A DNA stretch of 64,000 bases from Eledone cirrhosa. Lineage: Eukaryota. Position numbers and translations under genes: made by a program. The stretch is from contig OZ024751.1 of the NCBI GenBank assembly GCA_964016885.1, forward strand, positions 44,516,001-44,580,000, written 5' to 3'. This document shows, one piece after another, positions 7,541-52,101 of this stretch (within the stretch, counting starts at the first letter, position 1; each line of letters begins with the position of its first letter). The notes beneath the pieces were generated by a model, which saw only the letters and a program-made list of their open reading frames with translations, was not told the DNA's origin and made no database searches.

Positions 7541-7724
7541 AACACACACACGCGCACACACATATTGACATACAAATAGGTAAATAAATAGATAGATAAT
7601 ATAGAGAGAGATAGGTAGATAGATATCTTTCTTTATTCGATAGACAGACAGATAGACAGACAAACAGACAGATAGACAGATAGACAGACAGACGGACAGA
7701 CAGACAGATAGATAGATAGATAGA

Positions 7725-8032
7725 TTTCTATTTATGGCCACTAGGGCGCAAAAGAAGGGGACAAATACAAGGGGGGAGTTTACAAAAAAAGGCGAGTAAA
7801 GAAAACAAATAACAAATATAAAATTAACAATAAAGTCCTCAATAGGGAGGGGGCGTTTGGGGGGTCGCACACACCGCCGAAAAAAGTGTGCAACCCCTTC
7901 TCCTCAGGAGCACAGAGAGAGGGTGCTCCCTCGTTCCTTCCTCTTTTCCACCTACAGGCTGATGTAGAGAGAAGGCCCATTCACACGGGCCATTCTCGCC
8001 ACTTTCACCCACCTTTCATAAAAACGACTGGG
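7725..8032 (-). mobile_element. L1/Tx1-type LINE, 3' fragment, in (GATA)n
   Basis: Homologous to the 3' end and UTR of the element at 27885-32276; flanked by GATA repeats. Confidence 0.85.
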
Positions 8033-8066
8033 TAGATTGATAAATAGATAGATAGATAGATAGATA

Positions 8067-9463
8067 TATTTCTTTATTAGCCACAGGGCCACAAAAGAAG
8101 GGGACAAATACAAAGGAGGAAGTTTACATACAATAAAAACGTGTAAAATATTATCACAAATGCAATTTAAAAATTAATCGATTTTTCCCCAATAGGGGGA
8201 GACAGTTCATATGGGTAACACATACCACCGAAAAAAAAATGTGCAACCCTCATCTCCAGGAGTACGAAGAGTTTGTACTCCTTTCCTCTCCTCTTTTTCC
8301 TCAACCTACAGGCTGATATAGAGAGAAGGTCCATTCACTCGGGCCATTCTCACCACTTTCACCCATCTTTCATAAAACTTGCTGGGGTACAGCACCTCTC
8401 TCTCCATCCTGATTCTTCTTCCAAAGTGGAAAAAAAGAATCATTTGTTGGCCGGAGAGAAAGGTGTCTGACCTCAGCCCTTTCAACATTGTCCACCATAC
8501 AACCTCTTTCGCCATAGCTATCACACAAAAGAAAATCGCCTCTCCTTCGTTTTTGAAGGATGGTGGCGGTTTGATCATGACAATGGACTCGGTGGTCAAC
8601 TGGATTGGTCCCACTCGCGACAATAGTCGTTCTACATAGCCCCACAGGTCGGTGACGCCCGGGCAGTGTATGAATGCGTGCGCGACGGTTTCTTCGTCTC
8701 GCACGCACCTCGGACAGATCTTTTTTGCAGGGTCCCTGTCCGGGCGCCCATGTCTGTAGAGCTTGTCTCGAACTGGTAGAGCTCCTCGGTAGCACTGCCA
8801 GGCCAGGGAGTTTTGGAAGTTGTCCATCGGTCCCGGGCGGAAGGTCCTACCGAACAGACTGGCCAGTTCGTCTTCCTCTACGCCCAGAGTTTCACCGAGC
8901 GCGTCGTCGCACTTGCTGCGGACCAACCCTCTATAGAATGACGAAGTGGAGACTCCACTGATCGCCGGGTCCGCCTGCCAGAGGGCTGTGAGCGCCTGAG
9001 CACATTCGATGTGCCAGTCGCCCATTTTCCTCGGTCTTTGCTTGACCCAGGACTGCAGCTCGGTCAGCGAGACGAGTCGTGGGAAGGCTCGCCTCACGAA
9101 CGGGGCCCACACCGGTTGTCCGGTGAGGAATACGTAGAGATGCCGCAGCCTGAGCACGTGTTTGCGCATCGTCAGCCACGGCATCCCCAGCCCTCCGTTG
9201 GAAGGGCGTTGGCAGCAGATGGATCTTCTCACCAAAGGAGCCCGCCTCTTCCAAAGGAATTGGAAGAGCGCATGCTCCATTTTGGCGAGCGTTTTGGCTG
9301 GACAAGGCACGACGGTCAAGCGGTAGTAGATGGCGGACGCTATAAAAGTGTTCGCCATCTCCACTCGACCTTTCAAGTATAGTTTGCACTCGGTTCACTT
9401 CTGGGTGAGTGCAAACACCTTGGCCGACACCTCGTTCCAGTTCTTCTCCACCTGGAGGTCCGG
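8067..9463 (-). mobile_element. L1/Tx1-type LINE, 5'-truncated diverged subfamily copy (ORF2 C-terminus with CCHC-like motif CPRC..ETVAHAFIHC)
   Basis: ORF 8306-9376 is homologous to the C-terminal third of ORF 28147-31608 (GGLGMP, ALPVR, CPRC). Both ends abut GATA repeats. Confidence 0.9.
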
Positions 9464-9552
9464 ATAGATACATAGATACTATATCATATAAAACACATGG
9501 TCTTTCCATTGCTGATACTATCTACCGGTTGCAATTCATTGCAGATAGTGCA

Positions 9553-9665
9553 ACGTTAAATAAAGTGTCTTGCTTAGGACAGAACGCATCACCCGGTCCT
9601 GGAGTCGAACTCGAAACGTCACGATTGCGAATCCAATTCTCTAACCATTAAGCCACGCGCCTTCA
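9553..9665 (-). mobile_element. tRNA-derived SINE fragment (second family)
   Basis: Minus strand reads GCGCGTGGCTTAATGGTTAGAG..GTTTCGAGTTCGACTCC (A/B boxes), then GTCCTAAGCAAGACACTTTATTT, as at 33.5 kb and 55.4 kb. Confidence 0.75.
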
Positions 9666-10668
9666 CTAAGAAAAGATACTTGACCCGAAAGGTTGGAGCT
9701 GTGCTGTCACCACTAAAGATACTCAAGAAATTTCAGCTTGAAGTGTTAAATTAAGTCTTACATGCAAACCCATTCTTTCGACCCAGTTTCTTTCACAATA
9801 CTTCGTTTGAACTCAAAACTGTGTTAGTTTCAAAGCGAATATCTTGACCATACAGATCAGATAAGCCTGCACCCACTTCAGTAATACAGTTGTTTATACT
9901 AATAAGTGTCACTTTTTTTTAAAGATATAATCCGCGAACGGTGGCTATCCTTGTTGAATTAGATGTGTGGGAAGACACATAAATGGAAGTGTGGTTAATG
10001 ATAATATTAAAGCATTTATAATAATTACAATATGAGAACACAGATAGATATAGAGGAAGAACAGTTTTTCATTCATCAGAAAAGGAAGAACATATTAAAT
10101 TGTTCTAAACTATAGTTAAATGTTGTTTTAGTTAGGGAAGCGTAAATTGTAATTTGTATTGTTCATGATGGCTTTCACAAAGAGTTTGCTGTCATAAGTG
10201 GAAAGAAAGATCTTCAAAGGCAAATTAAAATGACATAATAGGTTAGGCTTAACTCGTGCTTTAATTTACTGTTTATTCAAAGAGGAAAGGGCAGTCCCTA
10301 TGACTCTTTTCAGGGCCTTTGAACTTGGTAAGGAGGAGGATGACGTTACCCTCATATCGGAGACCTAGCCCAAACGTTTACAACACAGCGGTTTCTGCTA
10401 AAGACACCAACTAACAAGATGATGTATTAACGCAGGCGACGGATTATGTCTACGACTCAATTAGACCACTGCGGGATTTGAACACAGAACTCAGGAGCCA
10501 GAAAACATATCACAAATGTTCAAATCTGAGGCTCTAAGAATTCTACTCTTTTAGCAAGGTTTTCATTCTTAGTTTAGCTGTTTCCCACTTTATATACGAC
10601 ATTTATTACAAGTTATATACGACATTTATATATGACATTTATTACCATTTTCAATTTGTATTTTTCAG

Positions 10669-10782
10669 ATTTGGAAATAGAATCTTTCGAGGCACCTCAA
10701 TATAATTCAGAATACGCCAGTGTGCCGCGGTGGCTCACAATTTGGGAATCACAGCACAATATACTGAGGAGCAGTGGCGCTG
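10669..10782 (+). CDS. candidate 114-bp phase 1-1 exon, (D)LEIESFEAPQYNSEYASVPRWLTIWESQHNILRSSGA(G); product unknown
   Basis: Acceptor TTTGTATTTTTCAG, donor CTG/GTGTGT, only one open frame, higher GC than the flanks. Confidence 0.35.
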
Positions 10783-11779
10783 GTGTGTATATATTTGTAT
10801 GTATTTGTATGTGTGTGTGCGAATTATAAGCATCTGTGTTTGTGTATATGTGTAGGGATGTGTGTGTGTATATGTGGACATATACATTATATACCTTGTA
10901 CAAATGTAGTTATAATTCGTCTCCCACCAGTGGTAGCCATCGTGGAGTTTATCTCTCTATCCATCAATTCCTCTATCCATCCATCCATTATTTAGTTATG
11001 ATCAAAGATATAAATCAACACCGTATAATGTCGTGAGAACTATATCTTTATTTTTGAATCATTATCTGTTATGTTCTGCTTCAGTTATGTCCTAACAACA
11101 TTGTCACAGACCTTGGGAAATCATTTGACAATAAAAAGAATCTCACGCAACCATTTTGTTTCCTGGTCGAATACAAATGTCCATATTTTACTAGCTGAAA
11201 TCAATATAAACATATTTAAATATTTACAGTCTATTTCACCATCTCAGAAACATCAATATTCTGGGCCGTATCAACTCGTGTCTAGGCTCACTAAAGTTTC
11301 AGATAATTTAGACCCCTTTATAGTAGTTCAATCATTCACCCTACTCAGAATAAAATGAACCAAAATATATTGACGAGGTCCTAAGCTTTAGCCTAGTCAG
11401 TGTTATGAATAAACAAGCTCTTTCCATGTTAGAAATGTTTCATATACTTTTCTTCAATAGCTTGACAGGCGAATCCACCCCACTCAGATCGCAAATACAT
11501 TTCTATATAGTTTTTTTCTTCTTTAAATATCGACTGGTTGGTTGGCTGGCTTATTGGTTGGTTTTGTATCTGGCCCGTTGGCTGGCTGGTATCTGGCTGG
11601 TTGGTTTGTTAGAGTGGTTAGTTGGCTGGCTGAGTGGTTGGGTGGCTGGCAGGTCGGGTGTTAGGCTGATTCTTGGCTTATTGGTTTCTTGGTAAATTGG
11701 GAGATTGATTGGCTGGCTGGTTAGTTGCTTAGTTTGTTCGTATGTTCGTTATAGGTTAGTTGTAGGATATGAGAGTAGC

Positions 11780-14700
11780 TAAGGTAGGTAGATAGGTAGG
11801 TAGGTAGATAGGTTGGTAGGTAGGTAGGTAGGTAGGTAGGTAGGTAGGTAGGTAGGTAGATAGGTAGGTAAGTAGGTAGGTAGGTAGGTAGGTAGGTAGG
11901 TAAGTAGGTAGGTAGATAGGTAGGTAGGTAGGTAGGTAGATAGGTAGGTAGGTAGGTAGGTAGGTAGATAGGTAGGTAGATAGATAGATATATTTCTTTT
12001 ATTTGCCACTAGGGCATCAAAAGTGGGACAAGTACAAAGGGGGGAGTTTACACAAAAAGGCGTCCTCAATAAGGAGGAGGCAATAACAAAATATAAAAAT
12101 AAAATAAGATATAACAAAAAATAAAATTTTTAACAAAATCCTCAATAGAGAGGAGGCGCCTTGGGGGGTCGCACACACCCCCGAAAAAAGTGTGCAACCC
12201 TTCTCCTCAGGAGCACAGAGAAGGGGTGCTCCCTTGGTCTTTCATCTTCCTCACCTATAGTCTGATGTAGAGTGAAGGCCCATTCACACGGGCCATTCTC
12301 GCCACTTTCACCCATCTTTCATAGAAACGGCTGGGGTGCAGCACCTCTCTCTCCATCCTGATCCTTCTTCCGAAATGATATCGGAAGAAACGGACCAGTT
12401 GTTGGCCAGAGAGAAAGGTGCCCGACCTCAGTCCTTTCAGACGCGTCCACCATACAACCTCTTTCGCCATGGCTATTACGCACAGAAACACCGCCTCTGC
12501 TTCATCTTTGAAGGGGGGAGGCGGCTTGATCATTACAATAGACTCGGTGGTCAACCGGATCGGTCCCACCCTTGACAGCAGTTGTTCGACATAGCCCCAC
12601 AGATCGGCTACGCCCGAGCAGTGTACTAATGCGTGTGCAACGGTTTCCTCGTCGCACACGCATCTGGGACAGATCTTTTTGGCGGGGTCCCTACCCGGGC
12701 GCCCGTGTCTGTAGAGCCTTTCTCGAACGGGTAAAGCCCCTCGGTAGCACTGCCAGGCCAGGGACTTCTGGAAGTTATCCATAGGTCCCGGGCTGAATGT
12801 CCTACCGAACAGGCTGGCCAGTTCGTCCTCCTCCATGTCTAGGGCTTCTCCGAGGGCGTCGTCGCACCTGCTGCGTACCAGCCCTCTATAGAATGTTGCG
12901 GTGGAGTCTCCACTGATAACCGGATCCGCCTGCCAGAGGGCGGTGAGCGCCTGGGCACACTCAGTGTGCCAGGCGCCCAGTTTTCTCGGTCTTTGCTTGA
13001 CCCAGGATTGCAGCTCGGTGAGTGAGACGAGTCTGGGAAAGGTTCGTCTCACAAACGAGGCCCACACCGGTTGTCCGGTGAGGAATACGTAGAGGTGCCG
13101 TAGCCTTAATGCGTGTTTACGCATCATTAGCCACGGCATCCCCAGCCCTCCTTTCGAAGGGTGTTGACAGCAGATGGATCTCCTCACCATAGGAGCCCGC
13201 CTCTTCCAAAGGAATTGGAAGAGCGCGCGCTCCATCTTGGTGAGGGTTTCCCTTGGGCAGGGCACTACGGTCAGGCGGTAGTAGATGACGGACGCTATGT
13301 AGGTGTTCGCCACCTCCGCCCGACCTTTCAGGGATAGTTTGCAACTGGCCCACTTCTGGGTCAGTGCAAACACCCTGTTCGTAACCTCCGCCCAGTTTTT
13401 CTCCACCTGGAGGTCCGGTCCGAACCAGACCCCGAGCAACTTCACCGGGCCCTCCGTCCAGCGTCCGACGACGCTATCGGAGGGCATCGGTCTGCCCCTC
13501 CACGTGCCGAGTTGCAAACCGATCGACTTGTCCCGGTTCAGCTTAGCCCCTGTGAACTTTTCGTACTCCTCCAGTAAGGTGCCGACCGCCTCGATTTCGG
13601 AGGCCGTCGACACCATTACTGTCACGTCATCGGCGTAGGCCGACACCGCTAGATAGATAGATAGGTAGGTAGATAGGTAGGTAGGTAGGTAGGTAGGTAG
13701 GTAGGTAGGTAGGTAGATAGGTAGGTAGGTAGGTAGGTAGATAGGTAGGTAGGTAGATAGGTAGGTAGGTAGGTAGGTAGGTAGGTAGATAGGTAGGTAG
13801 GTAGGTAGATAGGGAGGTAGGTAGATAGGTAGGTAGGTAGATAGGTAGGTAGGTAGGTAGGTAGGTAGGTAGGTAGATGGGTAGGTAGGTAGGTAGGTAG
13901 GTAGGTAGATAGGTAGGTAGGTAGATAGGTAGGTAGGTAGGTAGGTAGGTAGGTAGGTGGGTAGGTAGATAGGTAGGTAGATAGGTAGATAGATGGGTAG
14001 GTAGGTAGGTAGGTAGGTAGGTAGGTAGATAGGTAGGTAGGTAGGTAGATAGGTAGGTAGGTAAGTAGGTAGGTTGGTAGATAGGTAGGTAGGTAGGTAG
14101 GTAGGTAGGTAGGTAGGTAGGTAGGTGGGTAGATAGGTAGGTAGATAGGTAGGTAGGTAGGTAGAGAGATAGGTAGGTAAGTATGTAGATAGGTAGATAG
14201 GTAGGTAGGTATGTAGGTAGGTAGGTAAGTAGGTAGGTAGATAGGTAGGTAGGTAGGTAGGTAAGTAGGTAGGTAGAGAGATAGGTAGGTAAGTAGGTAG
14301 GTTGGTAGGTAAGTAGGTAGGTAGGTAGGTAGATAGGTAGGTGGGTAGATAGGTAGGTAGATAGGTAGGTAGGTAGGTAGGTAAGTAGGTAGGTAGAGAG
14401 ATAGGTAGGTAAGTAGGTAGGTTGGTAGGTAAGTAGGTAGGTAGGTAGGTAGATAGGTAGGTGGGTAGATAGGTAGGTAGATAGGTAGGTAGGTAGGTAG
14501 AGAGATAGGTAGGTAGGTAGATAGGTAGGTAGGTAAGTAGGTAGGTTGGTAGATAGGTATGTAGGTAGGTAGGTAGGTAGGTAGGTAGGTAGGTAGATAG
14601 GTAGGTAGATAGGTAGGTAGGTAGGTAGAGAGATAGGTAGGTAAGTATGTAGATAGGTAGATAGGTAGGTAGGTATGTAGGTAGGTAGGTAAGTAGGTAG

Positions 14701-15150
14701 GTAGATAGGTAGGTTGGTTGGTATCTAGGTAGGTAAGTAGGTAGGTAGATAGTTAGGTAGGTAGGTAGATAGGTAGGTAGGTAAGTAGGTAGGTTGGTAG
14801 ATAGGTATGTAGGTAGGTAGGTAGGTAGGTAGGTAGGTAGGTAGATAGGTAGGTAGATAGGTAGGTAGGTAGGTAGAGAGATAGGTAGGTAAGTATGTAG
14901 ATAGGTAGATAGGTAGGTAGGTATGTAGGTAGGTAGGTAAGTAGGTAGGTAGATAGGTAGGTTGGTTGGTATCTAGGTAGAGATTGTGGTGGGTGGGTAA
15001 GTAGGTAGGTAAAAAGAGTGGGGTAGATAGGTAGGTAGGTATGTAGGTAGGTAGGTAAGTAGGTAGGTAGATAGGCCGGTTGGTTGGTATCTAGGTAGCG
15101 ATTGTGGTGGGTGGGTAAGTAGGTAGGTAAAAAGAGTGGGGTAGATAGGT
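11780..15150. repeat. (GGTA)n/(GATA)n tetranucleotide array interrupted by a Tx1 LINE
   Basis: Direct reading at 11780-11990 and 13650-15150. Confidence 0.95.
11991..13649 (-). mobile_element. L1/Tx1-type LINE, 5'-truncated young copy (YADD to 3' UTR)
   Basis: ORF 12255-13646 is almost identical to the C-terminal part of ORF 28147-31608; inserted at GATA units. Confidence 0.95.
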
Positions 15151-16327: not shown

Positions 16328-16377
<50 letters not shown>

Positions 16378-16379
<2 letters not shown>

Positions 16380-16985
16380 TGGCTGCCAACTCGTTTTCGA
16401 GTACGGCCACTACTTTATATCCATGTAGGAGAACCCCTACCGATGCGCTGAACGAGTGTGACTTTTTAGTCCAGCCAGCGACTTGAAAACTCTGGTACAA
16501 ACACTACACTTGTGACAATTACTGACACATAGTGCTGGGCCCATGGTACCATGTGACGACAAGTGCAGAGAGATCTCCAGATATAAAACAATGCCTGTGC
16601 CGTGAAGCTTTTATAGTGAGCAAAGGCACTGCACAAAGCCAGTCCCACTCTCTTAACCAAGATGATATTTACCAAAAAGAAGAACAACTCAACATCATTG
16701 GATACCATCAGGGTTGCAGGTGTTATATCAGAGTTTTCCTTCTCCTAGAATTCTGCCTTGACGAAGGCTAAGGGGTCATCTCTCCCGGTGATTTTGGATG
16801 GCCATTAACTCTTAAGAGCTCCTTTGCCCTTTGACAGGTTTTGTTTTTAGTCCTGCAGGATGTCCAAAGTCACCCTCCTCACCAAGAAACCTTGGTGGGG
16901 TTGCCAGTTTAGTCGCCAACGGCCCGACCATGAGACAGGTTGTACTGGGATACATGTTACCAGTAGCACCAACTGGTGACCTAAC
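16378..16985 (-). mobile_element. ~600-bp non-autonomous interspersed repeat with RTE-5'UTR-like motif (GGAGAAGGAAAACTCTGA)
   Basis: Near-identical inverted copy at 46427-46995; both end at GCAGCCACC followed by (AT)n. Confidence 0.75.
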
Positions 16986-17255
16986 ATACATATATACATA
17001 CATACTTATATACAGGCTGTTATGACATAAAATGTTCTGTTATGAAACAGCAAAGATGTCGGCCGTATATAGAGCAAGTAATACAAAAGGACACTTTAAT
17101 GATCGAAAAGATAGCTTAATAGATTCAGTACTGTATTCAAAGTTACTGGGCCATCGTAAGCCTGTTCCTTACTGCAGAGGCCGCGTCCCCCCATTAAACA
17201 CCCCACAAACATATACTTCAAATTATAGACATCGGTACATTATCAGAACCCAGTT

Positions 17256-18303: not shown

Positions 18304-18359
<56 letters not shown>

Positions 18360-18651
18360 AAAACAAATAACGAAACGAAATTAAATTTCGTTTCGTTTGT
18401 AACTCACTTTTGTATGACTGACGCTTAAACAATTAAGTTAAAAATGTACATCCACATATGTATACTGAAATACTAGTATGCATATGAATACACACACGTA
18501 TACATATGTAGATGTACCGAGTTTTTCACTGGTCACTTTACTGTGAGTGTCCAGCTATTCTGTATGTAAGCACACAGACAAACCGGTTTTTAGAGTCATA
18601 CTGGTTTTTGAGGAAACACCTTTCCTCTATTCTCCAGAAAGCCAGACAAGG

Positions 18652-18694
18652 AATATTGAACTAGTTTCGATGTTGTTACATCTCATCAGCAATA
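18652..18694 (-). ncRNA. minimal type I hammerhead ribozyme (5' strand of stem I partly clipped by the inversion junction)
   Basis: Minus strand: TATTG-CTGATGA-GATGT-AACA-ACATC-GAAA-CTAG-TT-CAATATT. Confidence 0.8.
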
Positions 18695-19054
18695 AAAACC
18701 GGTTTGTCTGTGTGCTTACATACAGAATAGCTGGACACTCACAGTAAAGTGACCAGTGAAAAACTCGGTACATCTACATATGTATACGTGTGTGTATTCA
18801 TATGCATACTAGTATTTCAGTATATATATGTGGATGTACATTTTTAACTTAATTGTTTAAGCGTCAGTCATACAAAAGTGAGTTACAAACGAAACGAAAT
18901 TTAATTTCGTTTCGTTATTTGTTTTTATCGTCTCCGTTGAACCGGTACGTACTCACGCTCTATGCAAATTAGTCTGCCCACTACTAATTTTCATAGAAAA
19001 AGCATATAACGATATGTGCTTTTACGATTCTCTAGAGAGGCCGGAAGATAGGTA

Positions 19055-19099
19055 AATATTGCTGATGAGATGTAACAACATCGAAACTAGTTCAATATT
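19055..19099 (+). ncRNA. minimal type I hammerhead ribozyme
   Basis: AATATTG (stem I) CTGATGA GATGT/AACA/ACATC (stem II) GAAA CTAG (palindromic stem III) TT CAATATT (stem I'). Confidence 0.9.
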
Positions 19100-19520
19100 C
19101 CTTGTCTGGCTTTCTGGAGAATAGAGGAAAGGTGTTTCCTCAAAAACCAGTATGACTCTAAAAACCGGTTTGTCTGTGTGCTTACATACAGAATAGCTGG
19201 ACACTCACAGTAAAGTGACCAGTGAAAAACTCGGTACATCTACATATGTATACGTGTGTGTATTCATATGCATACTAGTATTTCAGTATACATATGTGGA
19301 TGTACATTTTTAACTTAATTGTTTAAGCGTCAGTCATACAAAAGTGAGTTACAAACGAAACGAAATTTAATTTCGTTTCGTTATTTGTTTTTATCGTCTC
19401 CGTTGAACCGGTACGTACTCACGCTCTATGCAAATTGGTCTGCTCACTACTAATTTTCATAGAAAAAGCATATAACGATATGTCCTTTTACGATTCTCTA
19501 GAGAGGCCGGAAGATAGGTA

Positions 19521-19565
19521 AATATTGCTGATGAGATGTAACAACATCGAAACTAGTTCAATATT
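19521..19565 (+). ncRNA. minimal type I hammerhead ribozyme
   Basis: Identical to 19055-19099. Confidence 0.9.
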
Positions 19566-19841
19566 CCTTGTCTGGCTTTCTGGAGAATAGAGGAAAGGTG
19601 TTTCCTCAAAAACCAGTATGACTCTAAAAACCGGTTTGTCTGTGTGCTTACATACAGAATAGCTGGACACTCACAGTAAAGTGACCAGTGAAAAACTCGG
19701 TACATCTACATATGTATACGTGTGTGTATTCATATGCATACTAGTATTTCAGTATACATATGTGGATGTACATTTTTAACTTAATTGTTTATATATAATA
19801 TAATTATATATATATATACACACATATATATATATATATAG

Positions 19842-19913
<72 letters not shown>

Positions 19914-25742: not shown

Positions 25743-26506
25743 TTAAATAGCGACAGAAGAAAGAAATATGCGGAAGAAAGAAATAGTTACATTGTCTTAG
25801 CGAAGGAAGACATAACATATTTAGGATTATATACATAATATATTATATACATTAGAGTTTATACTGACATTATGAAATACCAACAGCAAACAGATGGTTT
25901 TAAGTATACGACCGAAAAGCTCTCAGAGAATGACAAAGTATGATATGTCAATAAACACAGACGGGGAGTTTAGCCATCAAAATAAATGGATTTTAATAGC
26001 GATATCAATACAACAGACGACAATACATCTCTCCAACAAATGAAGAAAACAACCCAATATAAATATCTAGAAATTAAAGATAGCCCAAATGTGGACGATT
26101 TAGAACAAACCCTGTTTGTTCCTTCCAAATATGTGTTTCACTTGGCCTGTCCATATTTTCATCAACAGGAAGACATAATCATACGATGATATTTATGTTG
26201 ACAATTTAGTTTAAATTGAATTGTCATTTGTATCAGATCGATAAATAAAGTATCAATCCGACATTGGTGTCGATTCTCCATCCTGGTATTATTCTTTTCA
26301 TCAAACGTTAGTTGTATCTTATTTAAAATGAAATGATAAGACACCTTGTTAGCTTTCGTCAGCATAAAGCAAGATTTATGAAATATTCAATTTCACTTCA
26401 ATTCCCTATCTTTCTGCTTTGTTTGAAGAGTTCCGAACGCGGGATGGAGAGAGAAAGCCAGCTAACTAGCTAGACAGACAGACAGACAGGTAGATAGATA
26501 GATAGA

Positions 26507-26983
26507 TATCTTTCTTTATTTAACACAGGGGCGTACAAAATGACGGCGGGGTTTTTACATAAAATCTATAACAATGATAAATAACAATAAACTATATAAA
26601 AATAAAACAATTGAAATCCCCATGGAGGGGGGGGGGGGTAACGCTACTGCGGGGTTGTTTTACACCCGTTGATAGAACAACCCTCAACACCAGGAACACG
26701 TTTTGTAGGTGTTCCCGTCTTCCCTCCGTTTATCTTCCTCAACCTACAGATAAGGCCCATTCACCCGGGCCATTTTTGCCACATTCACCCACCTTTCAGC
26801 GAATTTACTGGGGTGTAGCACCTCTCTCTTCACTCTCACCTTCCTTCTGAAGTGGTACTTAAAGAAGGGGATGAGTTGTTGTCCGGAGAGAAAGGTGCTT
26901 GCCCTCAGTCCTTTTAACCTCGTCCACCATATTACCTCTTTCGCCATAGCCACCAGACAGTGGAAGACCGCCTCTCCTTCATC
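26507..26983 (-). mobile_element. L1/Tx1-type LINE 3' fragment (third subfamily)
   Basis: Encodes EGEAVFHCLVAMAKEVIWWTRLKGLR..VNGP; GATA-flanked. Confidence 0.85.
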
Positions 26984-26993
26984 GATAGATAGA

Positions 26994-27273
26994 TATCTTT
27001 CTTTATTTGCCACAGGGGCGTACAAAAATGGGACATTACAAGACGTGACGGCGGGGGTTTTACATAAAAATAACTTTAACATTAATAAATAACAATAAAC
27101 TATATATAATAAAATAACAATTGAAATCCCCAGTAGGGGGGAACGTTACTGCAGGGTTGTTTTACACCCCGTGGATAGAACAACCCTCAACACCAGGAAC
27201 CCGTTTTGTAGGGGTTCCTGTCTTCCGTCTGTTTATCTTCCTCAACCTACAGGTTTATATACAGAGAAGGCCC
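26994..27273 (-). mobile_element. L1/Tx1-type LINE 3' fragment (same subfamily as 26507-26983)
   Basis: Shared 3' UTR; separated from its neighbours by 2-3 GATA units. Confidence 0.85.
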
Positions 27274-27285
27274 AGATAGATAGAT

Positions 27286-27857
27286 ATGTTTCTTTTATTT
27301 GCCACCAGGGCATCAAAAGTGGGACAAGTACAAAGGGGGGAGTTTACACAAAAAGGCGTCCTCAATAAGGAGGAGGCAATAACAAAGTATAAAAATAAAA
27401 TAAAATATAACAAAAAATAAAATTTATAACAAAATCCTCAATAGAGAGGAGGCGCCTTGGGGGGTCGCACACACCCCCGAAAAAAGTGTGCAACCCTTTT
27501 CCTCAGGAGCACAGAGAGGGGGTGCTCCCTCGTTCCTTCCTCTTTTCCACCTACAGGCTTATGTAAAGAGAAGGCCCATTCACACGGGCCATTCTCGCCA
27601 CTTTCATCCACCTTTCATAAAAACGACTGGGGTGGAGCACCTCTCTCTCCATCCTGATCCTTCTTCCGAAATGATATCGGAAGAAACGGACCAGTTGTTG
27701 GCCAGAGAGAAAGGTTCCTGACCTCAGTCCTTTCAGACGCGTCCACCATACAACTTCTTTCACCATGGCTATTACGCACAGAAACACCGCCTCTCCTTCA
27801 TCTTTGAAGGGGGGAGGCGGCTTGATCATTACAATAGACTCGGTGGTCAACCGGATC
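27286..27857 (-). mobile_element. L1/Tx1-type LINE 3' fragment
   Basis: Highly similar to the 3' end of 27885-32276; GATA-flanked. Confidence 0.9.
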
Positions 27858-28146
27858 AGATAGATAGATAGATAGATAGATAGATTTCTTTTATTTGCCA
27901 CTAGGGCATCAAAAGTGGGACAAGTACAAAGGGGGGAGTTTACAAAACAAGGCGTCCTCAATAAGGAGGAGGCAATAACAAAATATAAAAATAAAATAAG
28001 ATATAACAAAAAATAAAATTTTTAACAAAATCCTCAATAGAGAGGAGGCGCCTTGGGGGGTCGCACACACCCCCGAAAAAAGTGTGCAACCCTTCTCCTC
28101 AGGAGCACAGAGAAGGGGTGCTCCCTTGGTCTTTCATCTTCCTCAC

Positions 28147-31100
28147 CTATAGTCTGATGTAGAGTGAAGGCCCATTCACACGGGCCATTCTCGCCACTTT
28201 CACCCATCTTTCATAGAAACGGCTGGGGTGCAGCACCTCTCTCTCCATCCTGATCCTTCTTCCGAAATGATATCGGAAGAAACGGACCAGTTGTTGGCCA
28301 GAGAGAAAGGTGCCTGACCTCAGTCCTTTCAGACGCGTCCACCATACAACCTCTTTCGCCATGGCTATTACGCACAGAAACACCGCCTCTGCTTCATCTT
28401 TGAAGGGGGGAGGCGGCTTGATCATTACAATAGACTCGGTGGTCAACCGGATCGGTCCCACCCTTGACAGCAGTTGTTCGACATAGCCCCACAGATCGGC
28501 TGCGCCCGAGCAGTGTACCAATGCGTGTGCAACGGTTTCCTCGTCGCACACGCATCTGGGACAGATCTTTTTGGCGGGGTTCCTACCCGGGCGCCCGTGT
28601 CTGTAGAGCCTTTCTCGAACGGGTAAAGCCCCTCGGTAGCACTGCCAGGCCAGGGACTTCTGGAAGTTGTCCATAGGTCCCGGGCTGAATGTCCTACCGA
28701 ACAGGCTGGCCAGTTCGTCCTCCTCCATGTCTAGGGCTTCTCCGAGGGCGTCGTCGCACCTGCTGCGTACCAGCCCTCTATAGAATGTTGCGGTGGAGTC
28801 TCCACTGATAACCGGATCCGCCTGCCAGAGGGCGGTGAGCGCCTGGGCACACTCAGTGTGCCAGGCGCCCAGTTTTCTCGGTCTTTGCTTGACCCAGGAT
28901 TGCAGCTCGGTGAGTGAGACGAGTCTGGGAAAGGTTCGTCTCACAAACGAGGCCCACACCGGTTGTCCGGTGAGGAATACGTAGAGGTGCCGTAGCCTTA
29001 ATGCGTGTTTACGCATCATTAGCCACGGCATCCCCAGCCCTCCTTTCGAAGGGTGTTGACAGCAGATGGATCTCCTCACCATAGGAGCCCGCCTCTTCCA
29101 AAGGAATTGGAAGAGCGCGCGCTCCATCTTGGTGAGGGTTTCCCTTGGGCAGGGCACTACGGTCAGGCGGTAGTAGATGACGGACGCTATGTAGGTGTTC
29201 GCCACCTCCGCCCGACCTTTCAGGGATAGTTTGCAACTGGCCCACTTCTGGGTCAGTGCAAACACCCTGTTCGTAACCTCCGCCCAGTTTTTCTCCACCT
29301 GGAGGTCCGGTCCGAACCAGACCCCGAGCAACTTCACCGGGCCCTCCGTCCAGCGTCCGACGACGCCATCGGAGGGGATCGGTCTGCCCCTCCCCGTGCC
29401 GAGTTGCAAACCGATCGACTTGTCCCGGTTCAGCTTAGCCCCTGTGAACTTTTCGTACTCCTCCAGTAAGGTGCCGACCGCCTCGATTTCGGAGGCCGTC
29501 GACACCATTACTGTCACGTCATCGGCGTAGGCCGACACCGCTTTCCGCAATCCCGGTTCCAAAGGGATGCCCTGCAACAACTCCAACTTCCGCAGTAGTG
29601 GCTCGAGAGTCAACACATACAGAAGGGAGGAGAGAGGGCACCCTTGTCGGATGGACCGCGCGATTTTGAACGGCTCCGAGAGGTAGCCGTTCACCTTGAC
29701 CCTAGAGCAGATGCGGCTGCTGTGCATAGCAGTGATCCAGCCCCTGAAAACGGGTCCGAAGCCTGCCGCCGCTAGCACCGCATCCAGGTAACCATGGTCG
29801 ACCCTATCGAACGCCTTAGATTGATCCAAGTTGATCAGAGCCCCACCAAAGCCGGGTTCGTTCCCAACCCTCTCTATGATGTATCGCATGAGGTGGAGGT
29901 TGTCATGGATGGACCTGGACGGGATAGCGCATGACTGCGCATCTCCCACCAGGTTGCCCACGACAAGCGCCAACCTCTTTGCTAGCACCTTGGCCAAAAT
30001 CTGTAACTCTGTATTTAGCAGTGTTATGGGCCTGAAGTTACTTATTTCGTCCCCCTTGTTCTCGTCCTTCCTCACTAGCGTGACTACGCCCTTGGTCACA
30101 GTACAGGGAATTCTCCCGTTCTGTTGCCAGTTGCAGTAGACCACCTCGAGGAGATCGGGGAACAAGTCCGGCATAGCTAGATATAATTCGTAAGGAAGAC
30201 CATCGAGACCCGGGGATTTGCGTTTGCCGCATTGGCTCAGCACGTCCTCTATCTCAGCGGCCGAAATCGGCTCCTCGCAGGACTTCGCCTCCCTGTCCGA
30301 GAGGCGCGGCAGGCCGTCGAGGTATGGACCGAAGTCCACGTTCCCAACCGGCTCCCCGCCCCTCCCGAACAGTCGGGCAAAGTGCCTTTGAAAGGCCTCA
30401 CACATCTGCTTAGGCTCAAGAATCGCTCGTCCATCCAGGTCTCGCAAAGACCGGATGGTGGATTTAGTTCCACTGTTGGCCTCTGTCACGCGGGCCCAGC
30501 TAACAGCTTTGGTCCCCTCGTTCCCTCGAGCACGTATTTTACTTCGGACAACGCAGCCTTCGTGCTTCGCGTCGAAAAACTGGCTCAAAGCCGTTCTCGA
30601 CGCTAGCACTCTGGCCACGTCGCCGCTTCTAATTGCCTCTTCTACTCTATCTATTAGCTCCCTTTCCTTCCTATTCCTATCCGCAGCTAGAACCTTACTA
30701 AATTCTATCGAGACTACTCTAATCTCTCTCTTTAGAGATACCCACCACCTGCTGTTGACGATCGCTCCAGTCAACCGTTCCTTAACTAACGTACTAATCC
30801 GATTCCTGTAGGCTCTACTTGCCGGCAAGGACAAGTTGAGCTTCCAGTAACCGGGGCCCTGTCTATGAGTTCTGTCAAGGTTGACCATGCAGGTCACTAA
30901 TTTGTGGTCTGAATAGCCAACCATGCGCATTTTTGGACAACTTAAAAAGTCCTTATCCTTAATTCTAACTAAGAACCTATCTAGGTACGACCTAGATGAT
31001 CCGCTACGATTTGCCCAAGTCCAGGTTGGCGCAGTCGGAAAATCTAGTCGATATCTATCGGCCAGGTCAAATCGACCGATTAACCCTTTGAGGCTATTAC

Positions 31101-31584
31101 ACCCCTCTCTATCGGGGCAGGCCCCTACGTAGTCCCAGCGTGCATCTAGGATACCATTCCAGTCCCCCACTAATAGCAAGGAGCGGGTCGTCCCTAGAAA
31201 AGTCTCCAGACGATGGAAGAAGTCCGGCCGCATTGACCCGAAAGGGCCGTAGGCGGCTACCAACCTAAACGCTCCGCCTTTACCACTGCCAAGGTCCAGA
31301 ACCACTAGTCGACCCTCCGGGTCCAAATGTACCATCTGTGTTGCGAGACCCAGATATTTTTGCAGCAGAACGACAACTCCACCCCCGCCTCCGGGCTGAC
31401 AGAGAGATGCGTGCATCTCAAAGTCATCAAAGGTGGGGGCCAGCTGTCGCACGTTGCTGATCCGGGCCTCGCAAATAACCATCACATCTATACGTTGTGA
31501 CCTGAGGTCATTTAGAAGCATTGCTTGCTTCCAAGTTGAGCCCAGGCCACGCGCATTTAAACAGCCTACTCTTAGCATAGCCAT
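28147..31584 (-). CDS. ORF2p: APE endonuclease + reverse transcriptase + C-terminal Zn-knuckle-like motif (~1145 aa)
   Basis: CLNARGL, ICE, GDWN, SYLDRF, YSDH, GYWKLN, KSPGLDG, NFRPITLLN, LDQSKAFDRV, RQGCPLS, YADD, GGLGMP, CPRC..H...C. Uninterrupted; first ATG at 31584. Confidence 0.95.
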   Translation of the reverse strand: MAMLRVGCLNARGLGSTWKQAMLLNDLRSQRIDVMVICEARISNVRQLAPTFDDFEMHASLCQPGGGGGVVVLLQKYLGLATQMVHLDPEGRLVVLDLGSGKGGAFRLVAAYGPFGSMRPDFFHRLETFLGTTRSLLLVGDWNGILDARWDYVGACPDREGCNSLKGLIGRFDLADRYRLDFPTAPTWTWANRSGSSRSYLDRFLVRIKDKDFLSCPKMRMVGYSDHKLVTCMVNLDRTHRQGPGYWKLNLSLPASRAYRNRISTLVKERLTGAIVNSRWWVSLKREIRVVSIEFSKVLAADRNRKERELIDRVEEAIRSGDVARVLASRTALSQFFDAKHEGCVVRSKIRARGNEGTKAVSWARVTEANSGTKSTIRSLRDLDGRAILEPKQMCEAFQRHFARLFGRGGEPVGNVDFGPYLDGLPRLSDREAKSCEEPISAAEIEDVLSQCGKRKSPGLDGLPYELYLAMPDLFPDLLEVVYCNWQQNGRIPCTVTKGVVTLVRKDENKGDEISNFRPITLLNTELQILAKVLAKRLALVVGNLVGDAQSCAIPSRSIHDNLHLMRYIIERVGNEPGFGGALINLDQSKAFDRVDHGYLDAVLAAAGFGPVFRGWITAMHSSRICSRVKVNGYLSEPFKIARSIRQGCPLSSLLYVLTLEPLLRKLELLQGIPLEPGLRKAVSAYADDVTVMVSTASEIEAVGTLLEEYEKFTGAKLNRDKSIGLQLGTGRGRPIPSDGVVGRWTEGPVKLLGVWFGPDLQVEKNWAEVTNRVFALTQKWASCKLSLKGRAEVANTYIASVIYYRLTVVPCPRETLTKMERALFQFLWKRRAPMVRRSICCQHPSKGGLGMPWLMMRKHALRLRHLYVFLTGQPVWASFVRRTFPRLVSLTELQSWVKQRPRKLGAWHTECAQALTALWQADPVISGDSTATFYRGLVRSRCDDALGEALDMEEDELASLFGRTFSPGPMDNFQKSLAWQCYRGALPVRERLYRHGRPGRNPAKKICPRCVCDEETVAHALVHCSGAADLWGYVEQLLSRVGPIRLTTESIVMIKPPPPFKDEAEAVFLCVIAMAKEVVWWTRLKGLRSGTFLSGQQLVRFFRYHFGRRIRMEREVLHPSRFYERWVKVARMARVNGPSLYIRL

Positions 31585-31608
31585 GTTGGTGGTGAAGAGA
31601 AAAGGCAC

Positions 31609-32276
31609 TTACCTCTCTGCGTCCCGGGTATCGGGCTGCACAATTTCCATTAGGGTGGGGGATGGGTTGTTGGGTGGGGTGGTGGTTTGTGGAAGTGTGG
31701 GGGCATCAGTGTGATGTGTGGTTGGGGAGCTTGGAGTTGTGTGGGTGTTTGGGGAGGGGGTGGGATAGTTTTTTAGGAGGACGCGGTTAATGGGCCCGAC
31801 GCAGGGGGGACCCACGTCCTCTTTAAAATTGTTTTTTAAAGTTTTATAGGTGTCCTGTGGGGCCTTAATCATTTTGAGGTGGGGGAAATCCCCTGCCTGG
31901 GTGAAGTTAGGCCCTTGTGTTTTTATTAGATTGTTGTTGTACACAATGTTTAACAGTTTTTTGTTTCTTGTATTTATGTATGTGTATGCATGTTTTTGTT
32001 TTTGTGTGGTGTTTTTTGTTTGCTGTTGTTGTGAGCTCTTTTGTGTTGGTGTCAGTGTTATGTTTTGGGGAGGGGTTTTTTTCATTTGTGTGTCTGAGGT
32101 GTGTTTTCTTTTTTTTCTTTTGATTGTGTGGAAGTGCTCCTCCTCGTCTGACGACGAACTAGGGTCATCTTCCGCGTTGGAGGGGAGGGGTATATTTTCG
32201 GGTTGTGTTTGCGGTACGGGTGTTTTGGAAATTGTTTTTGTTTTTTGAGTGGAGGGGATGGGTTGGACATTGTTTT
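31609..32276 (-). CDS. C-terminal low-complexity part of ORF1 (5'-truncated)
   Basis: Open frame rich in P/T/K/Q with a KRKKRK basic patch, ending 24 nt before the ORF2 ATG. Confidence 0.65.
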
Positions 32277-32310
32277 GATAGATAGATAGATAGATAGATG
32301 GATAAATAGG

Positions 32311-32389
<79 letters not shown>

Positions 32390-32701
32390 GAAGAAGAACA
32401 ACAAGTTATGAATGTCATGAATCAGGAAAAATGAATTTACTTATTCTTGTAACTAGGAAGGTAGATTCAAAAATACAGGGAGATAATTTACTATGTGTGT
32501 GTTGTGTGTGTGTAGGCGTGAACATATATATATATGTATGTATATGCATATAATATTCATATATATATATATATATATATATCGTCAGTCTTTAACAGGC
32601 TCCAAAGCCACTTTATAACATAACATACCTTAATGAAGGTAAATATTTTGTACAGGTACGTAATGACGGCACCTTCAAACCTCATCATTACACACACACA
32701 G

Positions 32702-34130: not shown

Positions 34131-35700
34131 TCCTACCAATAAAGTTATTATCAAATACGATATTATATTACAACCTAGCAATAGATATATTATCGAACGT
34201 AATATATCACAGCCTACCAATAATATAATATCAAATACGATATTATATTACAACCTAGCAATAGATATATTATCGAACGTAATATATCACAGCCTACCAA
34301 TAATATAATATCAAATACGATATTATATTACAACCTAGCAATAGATATATTATCGAACGTAATATATCACAGCCTACCAATAATATAATATCAAATACGA
34401 TATTATATACAACATACTAATAGAGATATTATTAAATGTAATATTATATCACAGCCTACCAATAATATAATATCAAATACGATATTATATTAAAACCTAG
34501 TAATAGATATATTATCGAACGTAATATTATATCACAGCCTACCAATAATATAATATCAAATACGATATTATATTAAAACCTAGTAATAGATATATTATCG
34601 AACGTAATATTATATTACAGCCTAACTATAATATAATATCAAATACGATATTATATTACAACATACTAATAGAGATATTATCGAACGTAATATTATATCA
34701 CAGCCTACCAATAATATAATATCAAATACGATATTATATTACAACCTACTAATAGATATATTATCGAACGTAATATATCACAGCCTACCAATAATGATAA
34801 TATCAAATACGATATTATATTACAACCTACTAATAGATATATTATCGAACGTAATATTATATCACAGCCTACCAATAATATAATATCAAATACGATATTA
34901 TATTACAACCTACTAATAGATATATTATCGAACGTAATATATCACAGCCTACCAATAATATAATATCAAATACGATATTATATTACAACCTAGCAATAGA
35001 TATATTATCGAACGTAATATATCACAGCCTACCAATAATGATAATATCAAATACGATATTATATTACAACATAGCAATAGAGATATTATTAAATGTAATA
35101 TTATATCACAGCCTACCAATAATGATAATATCAAATACGATATTATATTACAACCTAGCAATAGAGATATTATCAAATATAATATAACATGGCCTACCAA
35201 TAATATAATATCAAATACGATATTATATTACAACCTACTAATAGAGATATTATTAAATGTAATATTATATCACAGCCTACCAATAAAGTTATTATCAAAT
35301 ACGATATTATATTACAACCTAGCAATAGAGATATTATCAAATATAATATAACATGGCCTACCAATAATATAATATCAAATACGATATTATATTACAACCT
35401 AGTAATAGAGATATTATCAAATATAATATTATATCACAGCCTACCAATAATATAATATCAAATACGATACTATATTACAACCTACTAATAGAGATATTAT
35501 TAAATGTAATATTATATCACAGCCTACCAATAAAGTTATTATCAAATACGATATTATATTACAACCTACTAATAGAGATATTATCAAATATAATATAACA
35601 TGGCCTACCAATAATGATCTTATCAAATATCATAGCCTACCAAGAGAGATATTATCAAATATGATGTTATCTACCAGCCCTACCAATAGAAATACTATCA
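34131..35700 (+). repeat. AT-rich ~80-bp minisatellite built from two related ~40-bp halves
   Basis: Period of 80 at 34201/34281/34361; halves begin CCTACCAATA and CCTAGCAATA. Confidence 0.92.
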
Positions 35701-36361
35701 AGGATGGTTCAGCAAATAGAACCTTGAACCTTGCTGTCAATTTCTACCAGAATTGATGTACCAACCAATCAACCCATCAATCGAACGATCGATCAGTCTG
35801 ATTCAGGAGTAATATATTTTGCACTGTCACACGGATCTACAGACTTCCCCCATAACAAACAAACAAACAAACAAACAAACAAACAAACAAACATATACAG
35901 AGCTTTAAAAGATTATATAAAACAATGCAAAATAAAATAGAAAATCAGAAAGTAAAAAGAAACACATTTTGGCAGAGAGCAAATCTCGCAGTAGGTTTAG
36001 GTCTGCGATGTCTAACTTATCTCTGTATATCAAGTTAGTTCTAAAAGAGAGCGACTGATATTCTGATTTCGTTTAAATAGTAAACCTTCTTACAAGATAG
36101 CTTCACTGGAAAGAAATATTGTTATCTGATGACATTTTCGTCTCGCCGAGCAAAATAATATAGAAATAAAAATGAAAATAAATAATACCTGAGATAATAT
36201 GAATAGAAATCTAAAAATGTGACGTAATAACGAGAAAATTAGACGAATGAGTATAGACAGGCTTATAAAGAAATATATCTATATATTGTACATCACCCAT
36301 TTCCTCTCTTACTCTATCTTACTCATACATTCTACCCTCTCTCTTGCTCTTTCTTTGTCTC

Positions 36362-45708: not shown

Positions 45709-46426
45709 CACTACTACTACTACTACTACTACTGCTACTACTATTCCAAAGAAAGTCACCTGAAGACGGGTCAATGCCCTTAAGTATTATAGTATAAAGA
45801 AATATCATGTTTAGACGTCTGAAATATTTGAAGGAATCGAGAGCCGTAGAGATACAAAACATAGACACATCTTATATTTTTAATTTTATTAATGTTTCTT
45901 TTCTTTTTGTCTCAGAAAATAACAAGATAGATTTGTTATTTTTCTTCCATAGCTATTGCAAAATATATTTGCACGCACACCAATGCAACTAATCCCACGG
46001 GACCCAAATTGTCGGCCTCAAATCCGTGGGCCATTATCACTGAGCTCTGATTTCTGATCTCTGATCCCGATCAGGTGAACAACAACAGCTTGAGACAGCA
46101 TCATTCTCATACACAACAAGATGAAGACTACCTATCTCAGCAAACATACGGAAATACGCATAGACGCGCACACACATGCATTCATACAAATCGTCAGGAA
46201 TTCCTTGGTGATTTCTTACGAATGAAACAGTTCTAATCCTGTAGAAGTCATTTCTATAATAAAATAAAGGTGACTATACCCTACTAACGTATTGAGTGCC
46301 CTTTTTTAACTGTGGTCACCTCCCGATATATATCAGGATTCCACCCATTACATATATACAGTATATATATATATATGTATGTACGTATGTATGTATGTAT
46401 GTACACCTACGTATATATATATACGT

Positions 46427-46995
46427 AGTACAACCTGTCTCATGGTCGGGTCGTTGGCGACTAAACTGGCAACCCCACCAAGGTTTCTTGGTGAGGAGGG
46501 TGACTTTGGACATCCTGCAGGACTAAAAACAAAACCTGTCAAAGGGCAAAGGAGCTCTTAAGAGTCAATGGCCATCCAAAATCACCGGGAGAGATGACCC
46601 CTTAGCCTTTGTCAAGGCAGAATTCTAGGAGAAGGAAAACTCTGATATAACACCTGCAACCCTGATGGTATCCAATGATGTTGACTTGTTCTTCTTTTTG
46701 GTAAATATCATCTTGGTTAAGAGAGTGGGACTGGCTTTGTGCAGTGCCTTTGCTCACTATAAAAGCTTCACGGCACAGGCATTGCTATATATCTGGAGAT
46801 CTCTCTGCACTTGTCGTCACATGGTACCATGGGCCCAGCACTATGTGTCAATAATTGTCACAAGTGTAGTGTTTGTACCAGAGTTTTCAAGTCGCTGGTT
46901 GGACTAAAAAGTCACACTCGTTCAGCGCTTCGGTAGGGGTTCTCCTACATGGATATAAAGTAGTGGCCGTACTCGAAAACGAGTTGGCAGCCACC
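46427..46995 (+). mobile_element. second copy of the ~600-bp RTE-5'UTR-like non-autonomous repeat
   Basis: Reverse complement of 16378-16946. Confidence 0.75.
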
Positions 46996-47819
46996 ATATA
47001 TATATATACAGAGAGAGAGAGAGAGAGAGAGAGAGTGAGAGAGAGAGAGAGAGGGCGAGAGTGACGTAAATAGCAAGCAACAAACATCTCCAACTTTATA
47101 GCCATTAAAACTACACAACCAACACATAAAGTGTACTATATGAATCAAATACATAAAAACTATAAAACAGACGAACACATAATAATGAAATTTCTCATAA
47201 AACGTAACACAAAATACATCGTAGCAAGCCATAAATTATCAGTAATAATATGTACTACGAAAACTGTCAAATGAAATGTCTCTTTATTAACCAGAAGCCA
47301 TAAGTGTGTAAACCTGTAAATAATATGTTATACAAACCATCAATGTGATTTATAAATTCAATTTGATAAACATAGTTCACTTAACTCTTCTTCTTTATTT
47401 TCTTCATTTCTTCTAATACTACAAATAAATATGAAAATAATAAGAATAACAAACATCTCCAGAGTAGAAACAATGTCATTGAACTCTCAGATTGGTTATG
47501 TTCCTATCTCCAACATTAGTTCTATCTGTTGTAAAGAAATCTATTTCCAATCATAGTTGACTTTCTCCGACTGATTAATGTAATGTCATTTCTTTAGTAA
47601 GGTGACATTAGATAATATGTTCCTAGATAGACTATGTCATTGAGGAAATAAAAATGTCATAGGCCCGAGTGGAACATGTTTGATCATAATCCTGGGCTGA
47701 ATTTTGAAGCATGACAGAAAAGTAAATACTCCTGAGGGCATGGATGGAACGTCTTCAATTTAAACTTATTTCTTGACTGATTTAAGGCTAAGAAAATATA
47801 TAAGAACAACATAGATAAA

Positions 47820-51287: not shown

Positions 51288-51320
<33 letters not shown>

Positions 51321-51727
51321 CAGATAGATAGATAGATATTAAGATAGATAGATAGATATAAGGAGATGGAATTGAGGTGAAAATGGAAGACGTATATTTT
51401 CGCCGATCCTTGAGAAAATTTCTCTGGGACACGACAAACATTAAGGCGACATTTTCAGACCTAGAATGTCAGAGGTAAAAAAGGCGTATAGTCAACCCCA
51501 CAGGATTTAAACCTTAACAAATTTGACAACATAACTTCCTCCCTCATTTTTTTTTGTGTATTACTTTCTTTCTTTCCTTTTGTTGTTGTTGTTGTTGTTA
51601 TTTGTTTGTTTGTTTTGTCCTTATTTTTGTCCTTGTAATTGTTGATACTTTGCACATAAAAAAGGAAAGGGAGACAATTATATAAGTATTAAAATGTAAA
51701 GGGCAGAAACCTTTCACATATTTTCTA

Positions 51728-51904: not shown

Positions 51905-51964
<60 letters not shown>

Positions 51965-52056: not shown

Positions 52057-52101
<45 letters not shown>

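Follow-up and report, generated by a model that had tools for sequence, protein, structure and literature searches.

Is a GATA microsatellite the insertion target of a retrotransposon, or only a tail that the retrotransposon carries along? The question is raised by a stretch of 64,000 nucleotides from the cephalopod Eledone cirrhosa (contig OZ024751.1, positions 44,516,001 to 44,580,000; hereafter the window), in which related retrotransposon copies lie head to tail with short runs of GATA between them. The analysis showed that they form an L1-group, APE-type non-LTR retrotransposon family (LTR, long terminal repeat). It is likely that this family, with its several lineages, integrates into (GATA)n/(TATC)n by target-primed reverse transcription and renews its target in doing so.

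An earlier reading of the letters alone (the sequence-only reading) had placed seven copies in the window, four of them in tandem with short GATA spacers and all in one orientation. All seven were recovered (Table 1), and a stub, H, was added. Judging from its terminus, H is probably an eighth copy; when H alone was compared with the family profile of the 3′ untranslated region (UTR), the match was weak (E = 1.4). In the orientation of the element, the main stack reads G, F, E, D and the second stack B, A, H, while copy C stands alone. The 3′ end is common to all eight copies, the 5′ breakpoint is different in each, and LTRs are absent. Every copy is 5′-truncated, the 4.4-kb copy G included.

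The GATA/TATC repeat lies at both ends of all eight copies, as had been claimed for the seven, and none of them ends in a poly(A) tail. The copies share a single orientation and a single 3′ register. Past the 3′ junction, the first 12 nucleotides match (TATC)n at 12/12 positions in seven of the eight copies and at 11/12 in H. Past the 5′ junction, five copies reach 12/12, B reaches 11/12, and A and H reach 10/12. As a background, 12/12 is reached at 0.11-0.22% of the window positions and at least 11/12 at 0.18-0.34%. For the three outermost 5′ flanks (B, C, and G), the joint chance is about 2e-9 to 2e-8, assuming independent and uniform insertion. 5′ flanks free of GATA would have spoken against a target; within the window, the flanks of all eight copies carry the repeat.

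The 3′ terminus has the same order in 8/8 copies: AATAAA or a variant, GAAA, exactly two nucleotides, and the TATC repeat. The dinucleotide is GA in D, E, and H, TA in B and C, CA in F, and TC in A and G. Thus, the earlier description of GAAA running into TCTATCTA is right for G and, nearly, for A, while in the other six copies a non-repeat GA, TA, or CA stands between. A search with the 3′ junction pattern gave 10 matches in the window and none in 100 shuffles. Eight are the copy ends and one is an offset duplicate at D. The last one, at 36267-36285 (+), was rejected since it lies outside any GATA array.

Copy C interrupts a GGTA array of about 1.7 kb, where the nearby words are 62 GATA and 289 GGTA. 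It was found that GATAGATA occurs around copy C only at its two junctions, with three units per side. The tail of an RNA could supply the run at the 3′ end but not the run at the 5′ end; thus, the repeat belonged to the target at copy C. In the window, the AGAT class makes up 388 of the 10,972 bp (3.5%) of perfect simple repeat, and no copy lies within an AT, AC, ACCT, or ACC repeat (43, 9, 8, and 7% of perfect simple repeat, respectively). These observations support the GATA/TATC repeat as the target and not only as a tail. Sequence-specific targeting is very likely, and the minimal target is apparently about three GATA units.

Table 1. Copies of the GATA-associated family and related features of the window (positions in the window; element features are on the minus strand)
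Feature	Position	Strand	Description
Stub H	7626-7638	minus	13-bp 3′ end with D/E-type terminus, within a GATA/GACA array
Copy A	7723-8032	minus	3′ end only, in tandem with B
Copy B	8067-9463	minus	Separate lineage; in-frame stop and 6-nt deletion; degenerate GATA 5′ flank
Copy C	11991-13650	minus	Solitary; sits within a (GGTA)n array (11782-11990 and 13651-15129), at its sole GATAGATA run
3′ flank of D-G stack	26473-26508	.	(GACA)4, GGTA, (GATA)4
Copy D	26509-26983	minus	D/E lineage; 219/241 aligned bases identical to E
Spacer E/D	26984-26995	.	(GATA)3, 12 bp
Copy E	26996-27274	minus	D/E lineage; 3′ end only
Spacer F/E	27275-27286	.	(GATA)3, 12 bp
Copy F	27287-27857	minus	Mosaic of A-like and G-like sequence
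Spacer G/F	27858-27882	.	GATA repeat, 25 bp
Copy G	27883-32276	minus	Longest, 4394 bp; 5′-truncated within the putative ORF1
3′ UTR of G	27883-28146	minus	Hairpins, T-rich tract, AATAAA then GAAA, no poly(A)
Hairpins 2 and 3	28031-28092	minus	Weaker: 94.5% and 91.4% of cells paired
Hairpin 1	28101-28125	minus	8 bp with a loop of 9 nt; conserved in all 7 copies
ORF2 of G	28147-31584	minus	Intact, 1145 amino acids counted from the first Met; encodes an APE endonuclease and a reverse transcriptase (YADD), with a Cys/His motif at the C-terminus
Upstream open frame of G	31609-32276	minus	221 amino acids and stop; low-complexity; open to the 5′ GATA junction
5′ flank of G	32277-32388	.	GATA array: 5 units, interruption, 19 units
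Empty GATA/TATC arrays	51291-51358, 51906-51961, 52057-52100	both orientations	Up to 14 units, no element or stub

What kind of element is it? Copy G has an intact second open reading frame (ORF2), which matches Pfam Exo_endo_phos and RVT_1, with zf-RVT slightly under the cut-off. The APE catalytic positions N10, E39, Y112, D141, N143, D202, D226, and H227 are present in G and are invariant or nearly so among 93 aligned proteins. An AlphaFold model of the endonuclease domain (predicted local distance difference test, 95) has the L1 endonuclease as its best fold match (E 8e-20). Among solved structures, the whole ORF2 matches L1 ORF2p best (E 9e-48), with R2 behind (E 4e-19). The endonuclease hairpin loop has nine residues between its anchors and aligns to that of L1 without a gap. 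Residue 38 of ORF2 (31471-31473, minus), just before the catalytic Glu, is Cys in G, while at least 90% of the 93 endonucleases have Gln. The two closest full-length relatives of G have Ser there, and the residue may be a mark of this subclade.

The 221-amino-acid frame upstream ends 24 nt ahead of the ORF2 Met and has no Pfam match. From its position, it is read as the C-terminal remnant of ORF1. Copy G is not a complete element, as the start of ORF1 is absent, and none of the other copies has the N-terminal portion of ORF1 either. An ORF with a CCHC knuckle that could complete ORF1 was sought in the window; no credible one was found, and the sole pattern match is interrupted by a stop codon.

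The family probably belongs to the Tx1 clade, as suggested indirectly by its combination of target specificity with an APE domain and by the N-terminal domains of one relative. An APE endonuclease with target specificity, a Tx1-type feature (PMC4640811), was found for 8/8 copies at three loci. The features of mammalian-type L1, a poly(A) tail and a loose T-rich target, were not found, with poly(A) in 0/8 copies. In a reverse transcriptase tree of 34 proteins picked from 220, with no Repbase references among them, the element and three relatives group together (99/99) inside a 13-member clade (100/100). The sole TX1-named row in the tree (Takifugu P0019) is a long unplaced branch. Two TX1-named hits scored 98 and 74 bits, below human L1 ORF2p (166 bits). 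P0091, a relative with 30% identity, has ZCCHC3-type RNA-binding domains and a knuckle at its N-terminus. RNA-binding domains and a CCHC knuckle are features of the ORF1 of the Tx1 clade, and the N-terminus of P0091 would be of this type, which supports the Tx1 assignment indirectly.

By ORF2, the closest relatives are 58-69% identical. The closest named ones, three proteins of Argonauta hians annotated as hypothetical (GAB1601854.1, GAB1599396.1, and GAB1606090.1), are 58-64% identical, and GAB1606090.1 falls into the four-member reverse transcriptase subclade of the element (99/99). These relatives point to an octopod as the host. P0067 from the limpet Patella caerulea is 28% identical and has 11 entries with near-consecutive locus tags from SNE40_003393 to SNE40_003415, which suggests that a related element exists as a tandem array in that species. 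Bacterial and archaeal genomes gave 28 pattern matches but no relative, and no match to the 3′ junction pattern.

How might the RNA be recognized in the absence of poly(A)? The 3′ UTRs of the most distant lineages share 57-68% identity. Hairpin 1 closely follows the stop codon and is separated from the 3′ end by about 220 nt. It is paired in 56/56 cells, while slid controls gave 34-64%. Compensatory changes were found in three of its eight pairs, and its covariation score was met by none of 500 shuffles, in a test on seven related rows whose structure was drawn from the same alignment. The folding of the 3′ UTR of G has a z score of -3.0. A search of the 3′ UTRs against Rfam gave eight matches, every one of them far below the gathering score. 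Conserved stem-loops mark LINEs (long interspersed elements) that recognize their own RNA specifically (PMC3747384), and a conserved 3′ stem-loop with compensatory changes, as in LINEs of the stringent type, was found here. The covariation is suggestive of a structure, although not a proof of it. If it holds, an L1-group element of an animal may recognize its RNA specifically although it lacks poly(A).

In the proposed mechanism, ORF2p would bind its own RNA via the structured 3′ UTR and not via a poly(A) tail. The APE domain would nick the GATA strand, and the resulting 3′ OH would prime complementary DNA at the 3′ end of the RNA. If the RNA had no repeat tail, the junctions would need a GATA/GATA nick (six junctions). 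If the RNA ended in at least one UAUC unit annealed to the primer, a single GAT/AGAT nick would explain all eight junctions. Synthesis would mostly stop early, and a second nick about 12-14 nt away, with a scatter of 0-2 nt, would duplicate about three units. Each insertion would leave a usable target alongside, and later copies of any lineage could stack head to tail, probably with growth at the 5′ side of older copies.

Part of this scheme can be compared with the junctions. The 3′ register is constant and the 5′ register scatters by 0-2 nt, which fits a first nick that is precise and a second step that is less so. The maximal exact duplication is 13-14 bp for C and F, 12 bp for D and E, and 20 bp for G; these lengths are upper limits, since the true extent of a duplication is hidden when it falls within a repeat. 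From the recurrence of the 12-bp spacer, a target duplication of about three units is suggested, which would renew the target. The sequence-only reading had proposed that each insertion regenerates a target for the next. Two exact 12-bp spacers and the 13-14 bp at C fit the proposal, which the repeat itself keeps from direct measurement.

It had also been proposed that the APE domain reads the repeat. The insertion of an L1-group APE family into GATA/TATC is supported. Recognition of the repeat by the endonuclease itself is a possibility only: the loop has the length of that of L1, and annealing of a read-through (UAUC)n end of the RNA would account for the junctions just as well. No feature of the protein sequence shows that the endonuclease alone would read GATA. 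A mainly RNA-directed specificity is possible, if on the unlikely side: a weakly specific L1-like endonuclease would nick T/A steps widely, and only the nicks in (GATA)n would be productive via annealing of a read-through (UAUC)n end. Such an end would account for the constant 3′ register and, with one T/A nick, for both the NA-type (6/8) and the TC-type (2/8) junctions. The absence of poly(A) in spite of an AATAAA signal and the gap-free, L1-length loop also speak for it. For other elements, it is reported that specificity gains from transcription together with the target (PMC4494074). However, enzymes of the Tx1L type are sequence-specific on their own, and loop identity alone does not fix specificity (PMC1950540), so that the loop length is weak evidence. 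Moreover, copies G and C are 99.4% identical across 1659 bp but have different junction dinucleotides, which requires variable priming or later mutation. I favor an endonuclease preference that would be sharpened by UAUC annealing. The confidence placed in targeting, in the whole model, and in the RNA-directed alternative overlaps.

Are the stacked copies of one origin? At least three subfamilies on one target had been claimed, and this was exceeded: there are at least four lineages (G/C, A, B, and D/E), all under purifying selection, plus the mosaic copy F. The ratio of nonsynonymous to synonymous substitution rates (dN/dS) is 0.05-0.18 in 13 of the 15 copy pairs with enough codons; E and H are too short. 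Therefore, the differences arose mostly in active master copies. Copy F is A-like at 13/13 informative sites (27626-27531); of the next 32 sites in the 3′ direction, 29 are G-like, and none of 20,000 permutations was as extreme. The switch lies near 27531-27519, just past the stop codon. Along the main stack, private differences rise from G (1/326) to F (5/330), E (9/122), and D (35/284), which fits growth of the stack at its 5′ side.

These lineages bear on an improbable alternative, in which the repeat would be no more than a 3′ tail and RNA-to-RNA template jumping would have made the stacks in single events. Tails could account for the spacers of 12, 12, and 25 bp, and the mosaic F implies that template exchange or gene conversion has occurred in the family. 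As a general explanation, this is contradicted by the outermost 5′ flanks, which carry the repeat at all three loci (B, C, and G), and by the solitary C with its three units per side. Also, stack neighbors are different lineages with unequal private change. It is still less probable that copies inserted loosely and accumulated passively by surviving in microsatellite-rich DNA, as proposed for Waldo-A and Waldo-B of Drosophila (PMC3812793). With 151 tandem arrays, the window abounds in simple repeats, but none of the copies lies in the far commoner repeats named above, their orientation and 3′ register are fixed, and C sits in a rare GATA run inside the GGTA array. Least credible of all is a local tandem duplication or an assembly artifact, to which the adjoining related segments and the ~95% identity of F and G might point, since the 5′ breakpoints differ, the 3′ UTR identity between lineages is 58-95%, the closest relative of G is C, 16 kb off, and the synonymous-biased divergence arose in active masters, which excludes local duplication.

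Returning to targeted, target-renewing insertion, several points weigh against it. On the 5′ side, A, B, and H match the repeat imperfectly (10-11 of 12), and their maximal exact duplications are only 2, 8, and 4 bp, respectively. The endonuclease loop is of L1-type length, 9 residues vs. 11 in Tx1L (PMC1950540). Two copy pairs are exceptions to the low dN/dS, namely A-D with 0.50 (20 codons) and C-G with 0.52 (8 differences), and the age gradient of the stack confounds lineage divergence with decay after insertion. The small alignment behind the hairpin test, from which the structure itself was drawn, belongs here as well. The independent loci are three (the B-A-H stack, C, and the G-F-E-D stack), all in one window. 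Three longer GATA/TATC arrays in the window have no insertion.

Some other features of the window were recorded. The three occupied loci (7626-13650 and 26509-32276) point the same way, for which the chance is 1 in 4, and no host gene that accounts for the shared orientation was identified. No tRNA or Rfam gene was found in the 64-kb window, and a profile search of the window revealed neither a SINE-like (short interspersed element-like) partner nor a further diverged copy. An unrelated, frameshifted LINE at 1397-3718 (+), with a reverse transcriptase by Pfam RVT_1 (E 5e-21), is flanked by blocks of one 26-bp minisatellite (1119-1397 and 3719-4240). The segment 37072-37538 is 86-90% identical to the 3′ part of this LINE and contains an 83-bp piece repeated three times. 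The members of a 650-bp repeat pair in inverted orientation (16365-17012 and 46370-47008) share 95% identity. At 18305-19908, a 466-bp segment is duplicated in a nested arrangement, both in tandem and inverted, with 99-100% identity. An AT-rich 83-bp satellite of about 18 copies (34132-35701) lies 1.7 kb from the stack.

Has such a family been described before? Known Tx1 targets are (TC)n, (TTC)n, (TTCC)n, (TTTC)n, U2 genes, and DNA transposons (PMC4494074). Elsewhere, the microsatellite targets ACAY, AC, TC, TTC, and TAA are listed, and their recognition mechanism is called poorly understood (PMC3812793). Kibi and Koshi (teleost Tx1 elements) and the crocodilian Tx1 in (TTCC)n/(TTTC)n are likewise APE-type L1/Tx1 elements with a microsatellite target (PMC4494074, PMC3812793). 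The present family is set apart from Kibi and Koshi by its target: theirs is (TC)n or (TTC)n, while all junctions here are TATC/GATA and not pure pyrimidine/purine. Their hosts are teleost fishes, whereas the host here is a cephalopod. Waldo and Mino belong to the R1 clade, and Dong belongs to R4 with a restriction-like endonuclease. They have microsatellite targets too, but of other units (ACAY and AC for Waldo and Mino, TAA for Dong; PMC3812793), and no copy here lies in those.

Tx1L of Xenopus laevis shares the APE-RT (reverse transcriptase) layout of ORF2 and sequence-specific insertion, and its endonuclease nicks its own target nearly exclusively (PMC1950540). AGTT lies downstream of the Tx1L nick, and a GAT/AGAT nick here would give a similar AGAT. 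In contrast, Tx1L uses a unique site in a DNA transposon, and the loop has 11 residues in Tx1L and in TRAS1, against the nine found here (PMC1950540). Mammalian L1 (PDB 8sxt and 1vyb) shares the endonuclease fold, the loop length, the ORF2 layout, the 3′ AATAAA, and the 5′ truncation. It differs in having poly(A) and a loose TTTT/AA preference, while the present family lacks poly(A), keeps to one repeat as its target, and carries a 3′ UTR hairpin that covaries.

Tandem stacking of target-specific elements has been described before (PMC4494074, PMC4640811). Tandem SINEU-3 insertions flank a target-site duplication (PMC4494074), and Utopia copies occur in tandem (PMC4640811). As in the window, SINEU-3/Tx1-Mar and Utopia-1_NVit show sequential tandem insertion. 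They insert into a Mariner element or into U2 genes, whereas here a microsatellite forms the spacer and several lineages share a stack. Thus, microsatellite targeting with tandem stacking is a known concept, and it is probably the GATA target that is new. For Octopus vulgaris, 13 recently active L1-Tx1 families are reported, with no targets mentioned in the available part of the paper (PMC13282606). GATA does not occur in the available parts of PMC8967140, PMC10294476, and PMC4758252. A GATA-specific family was not found in the literature, in a search that a printed "(GATA)n" may escape and that did not cover Repbase/Dfam entries. On balance, I lean towards GATA specificity being undescribed so far. 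Both primers of an Octopus cyanea (GATA)19 marker (PMC6404728) were unmatched in the window at up to three mismatches, and one marker says little.

Does the trait extend beyond Eledone? A rather doubtful extension is an octopod-wide radiation of L1/Tx1 elements on (GATA)n, in which an L1-like endonuclease would act, the hairpins would recruit ORF2p, and a read-through (UAUC)n end would anneal to the nicked strand. If this were true, the end of the RNA would partly set the target, and GATA arrays would be self-renewing landing pads on which lineages stack and recombine as in copy F. As it stands, (GATA)n joins the short list of microsatellites hit by APE-type retrotransposons, and the group of hosts is probably new as well. 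In this family, the ORF2 is intact and young, the target can be as small as about three units, the GGTA array that surrounds copy C serves as a natural negative control, and one target is shared by several lineages. Therefore, the question of endonuclease versus RNA annealing is directly testable in it. GATA repeats are common in animal genomes, and for this reason gene delivery might profit from an integrase that is specific for the repeat.

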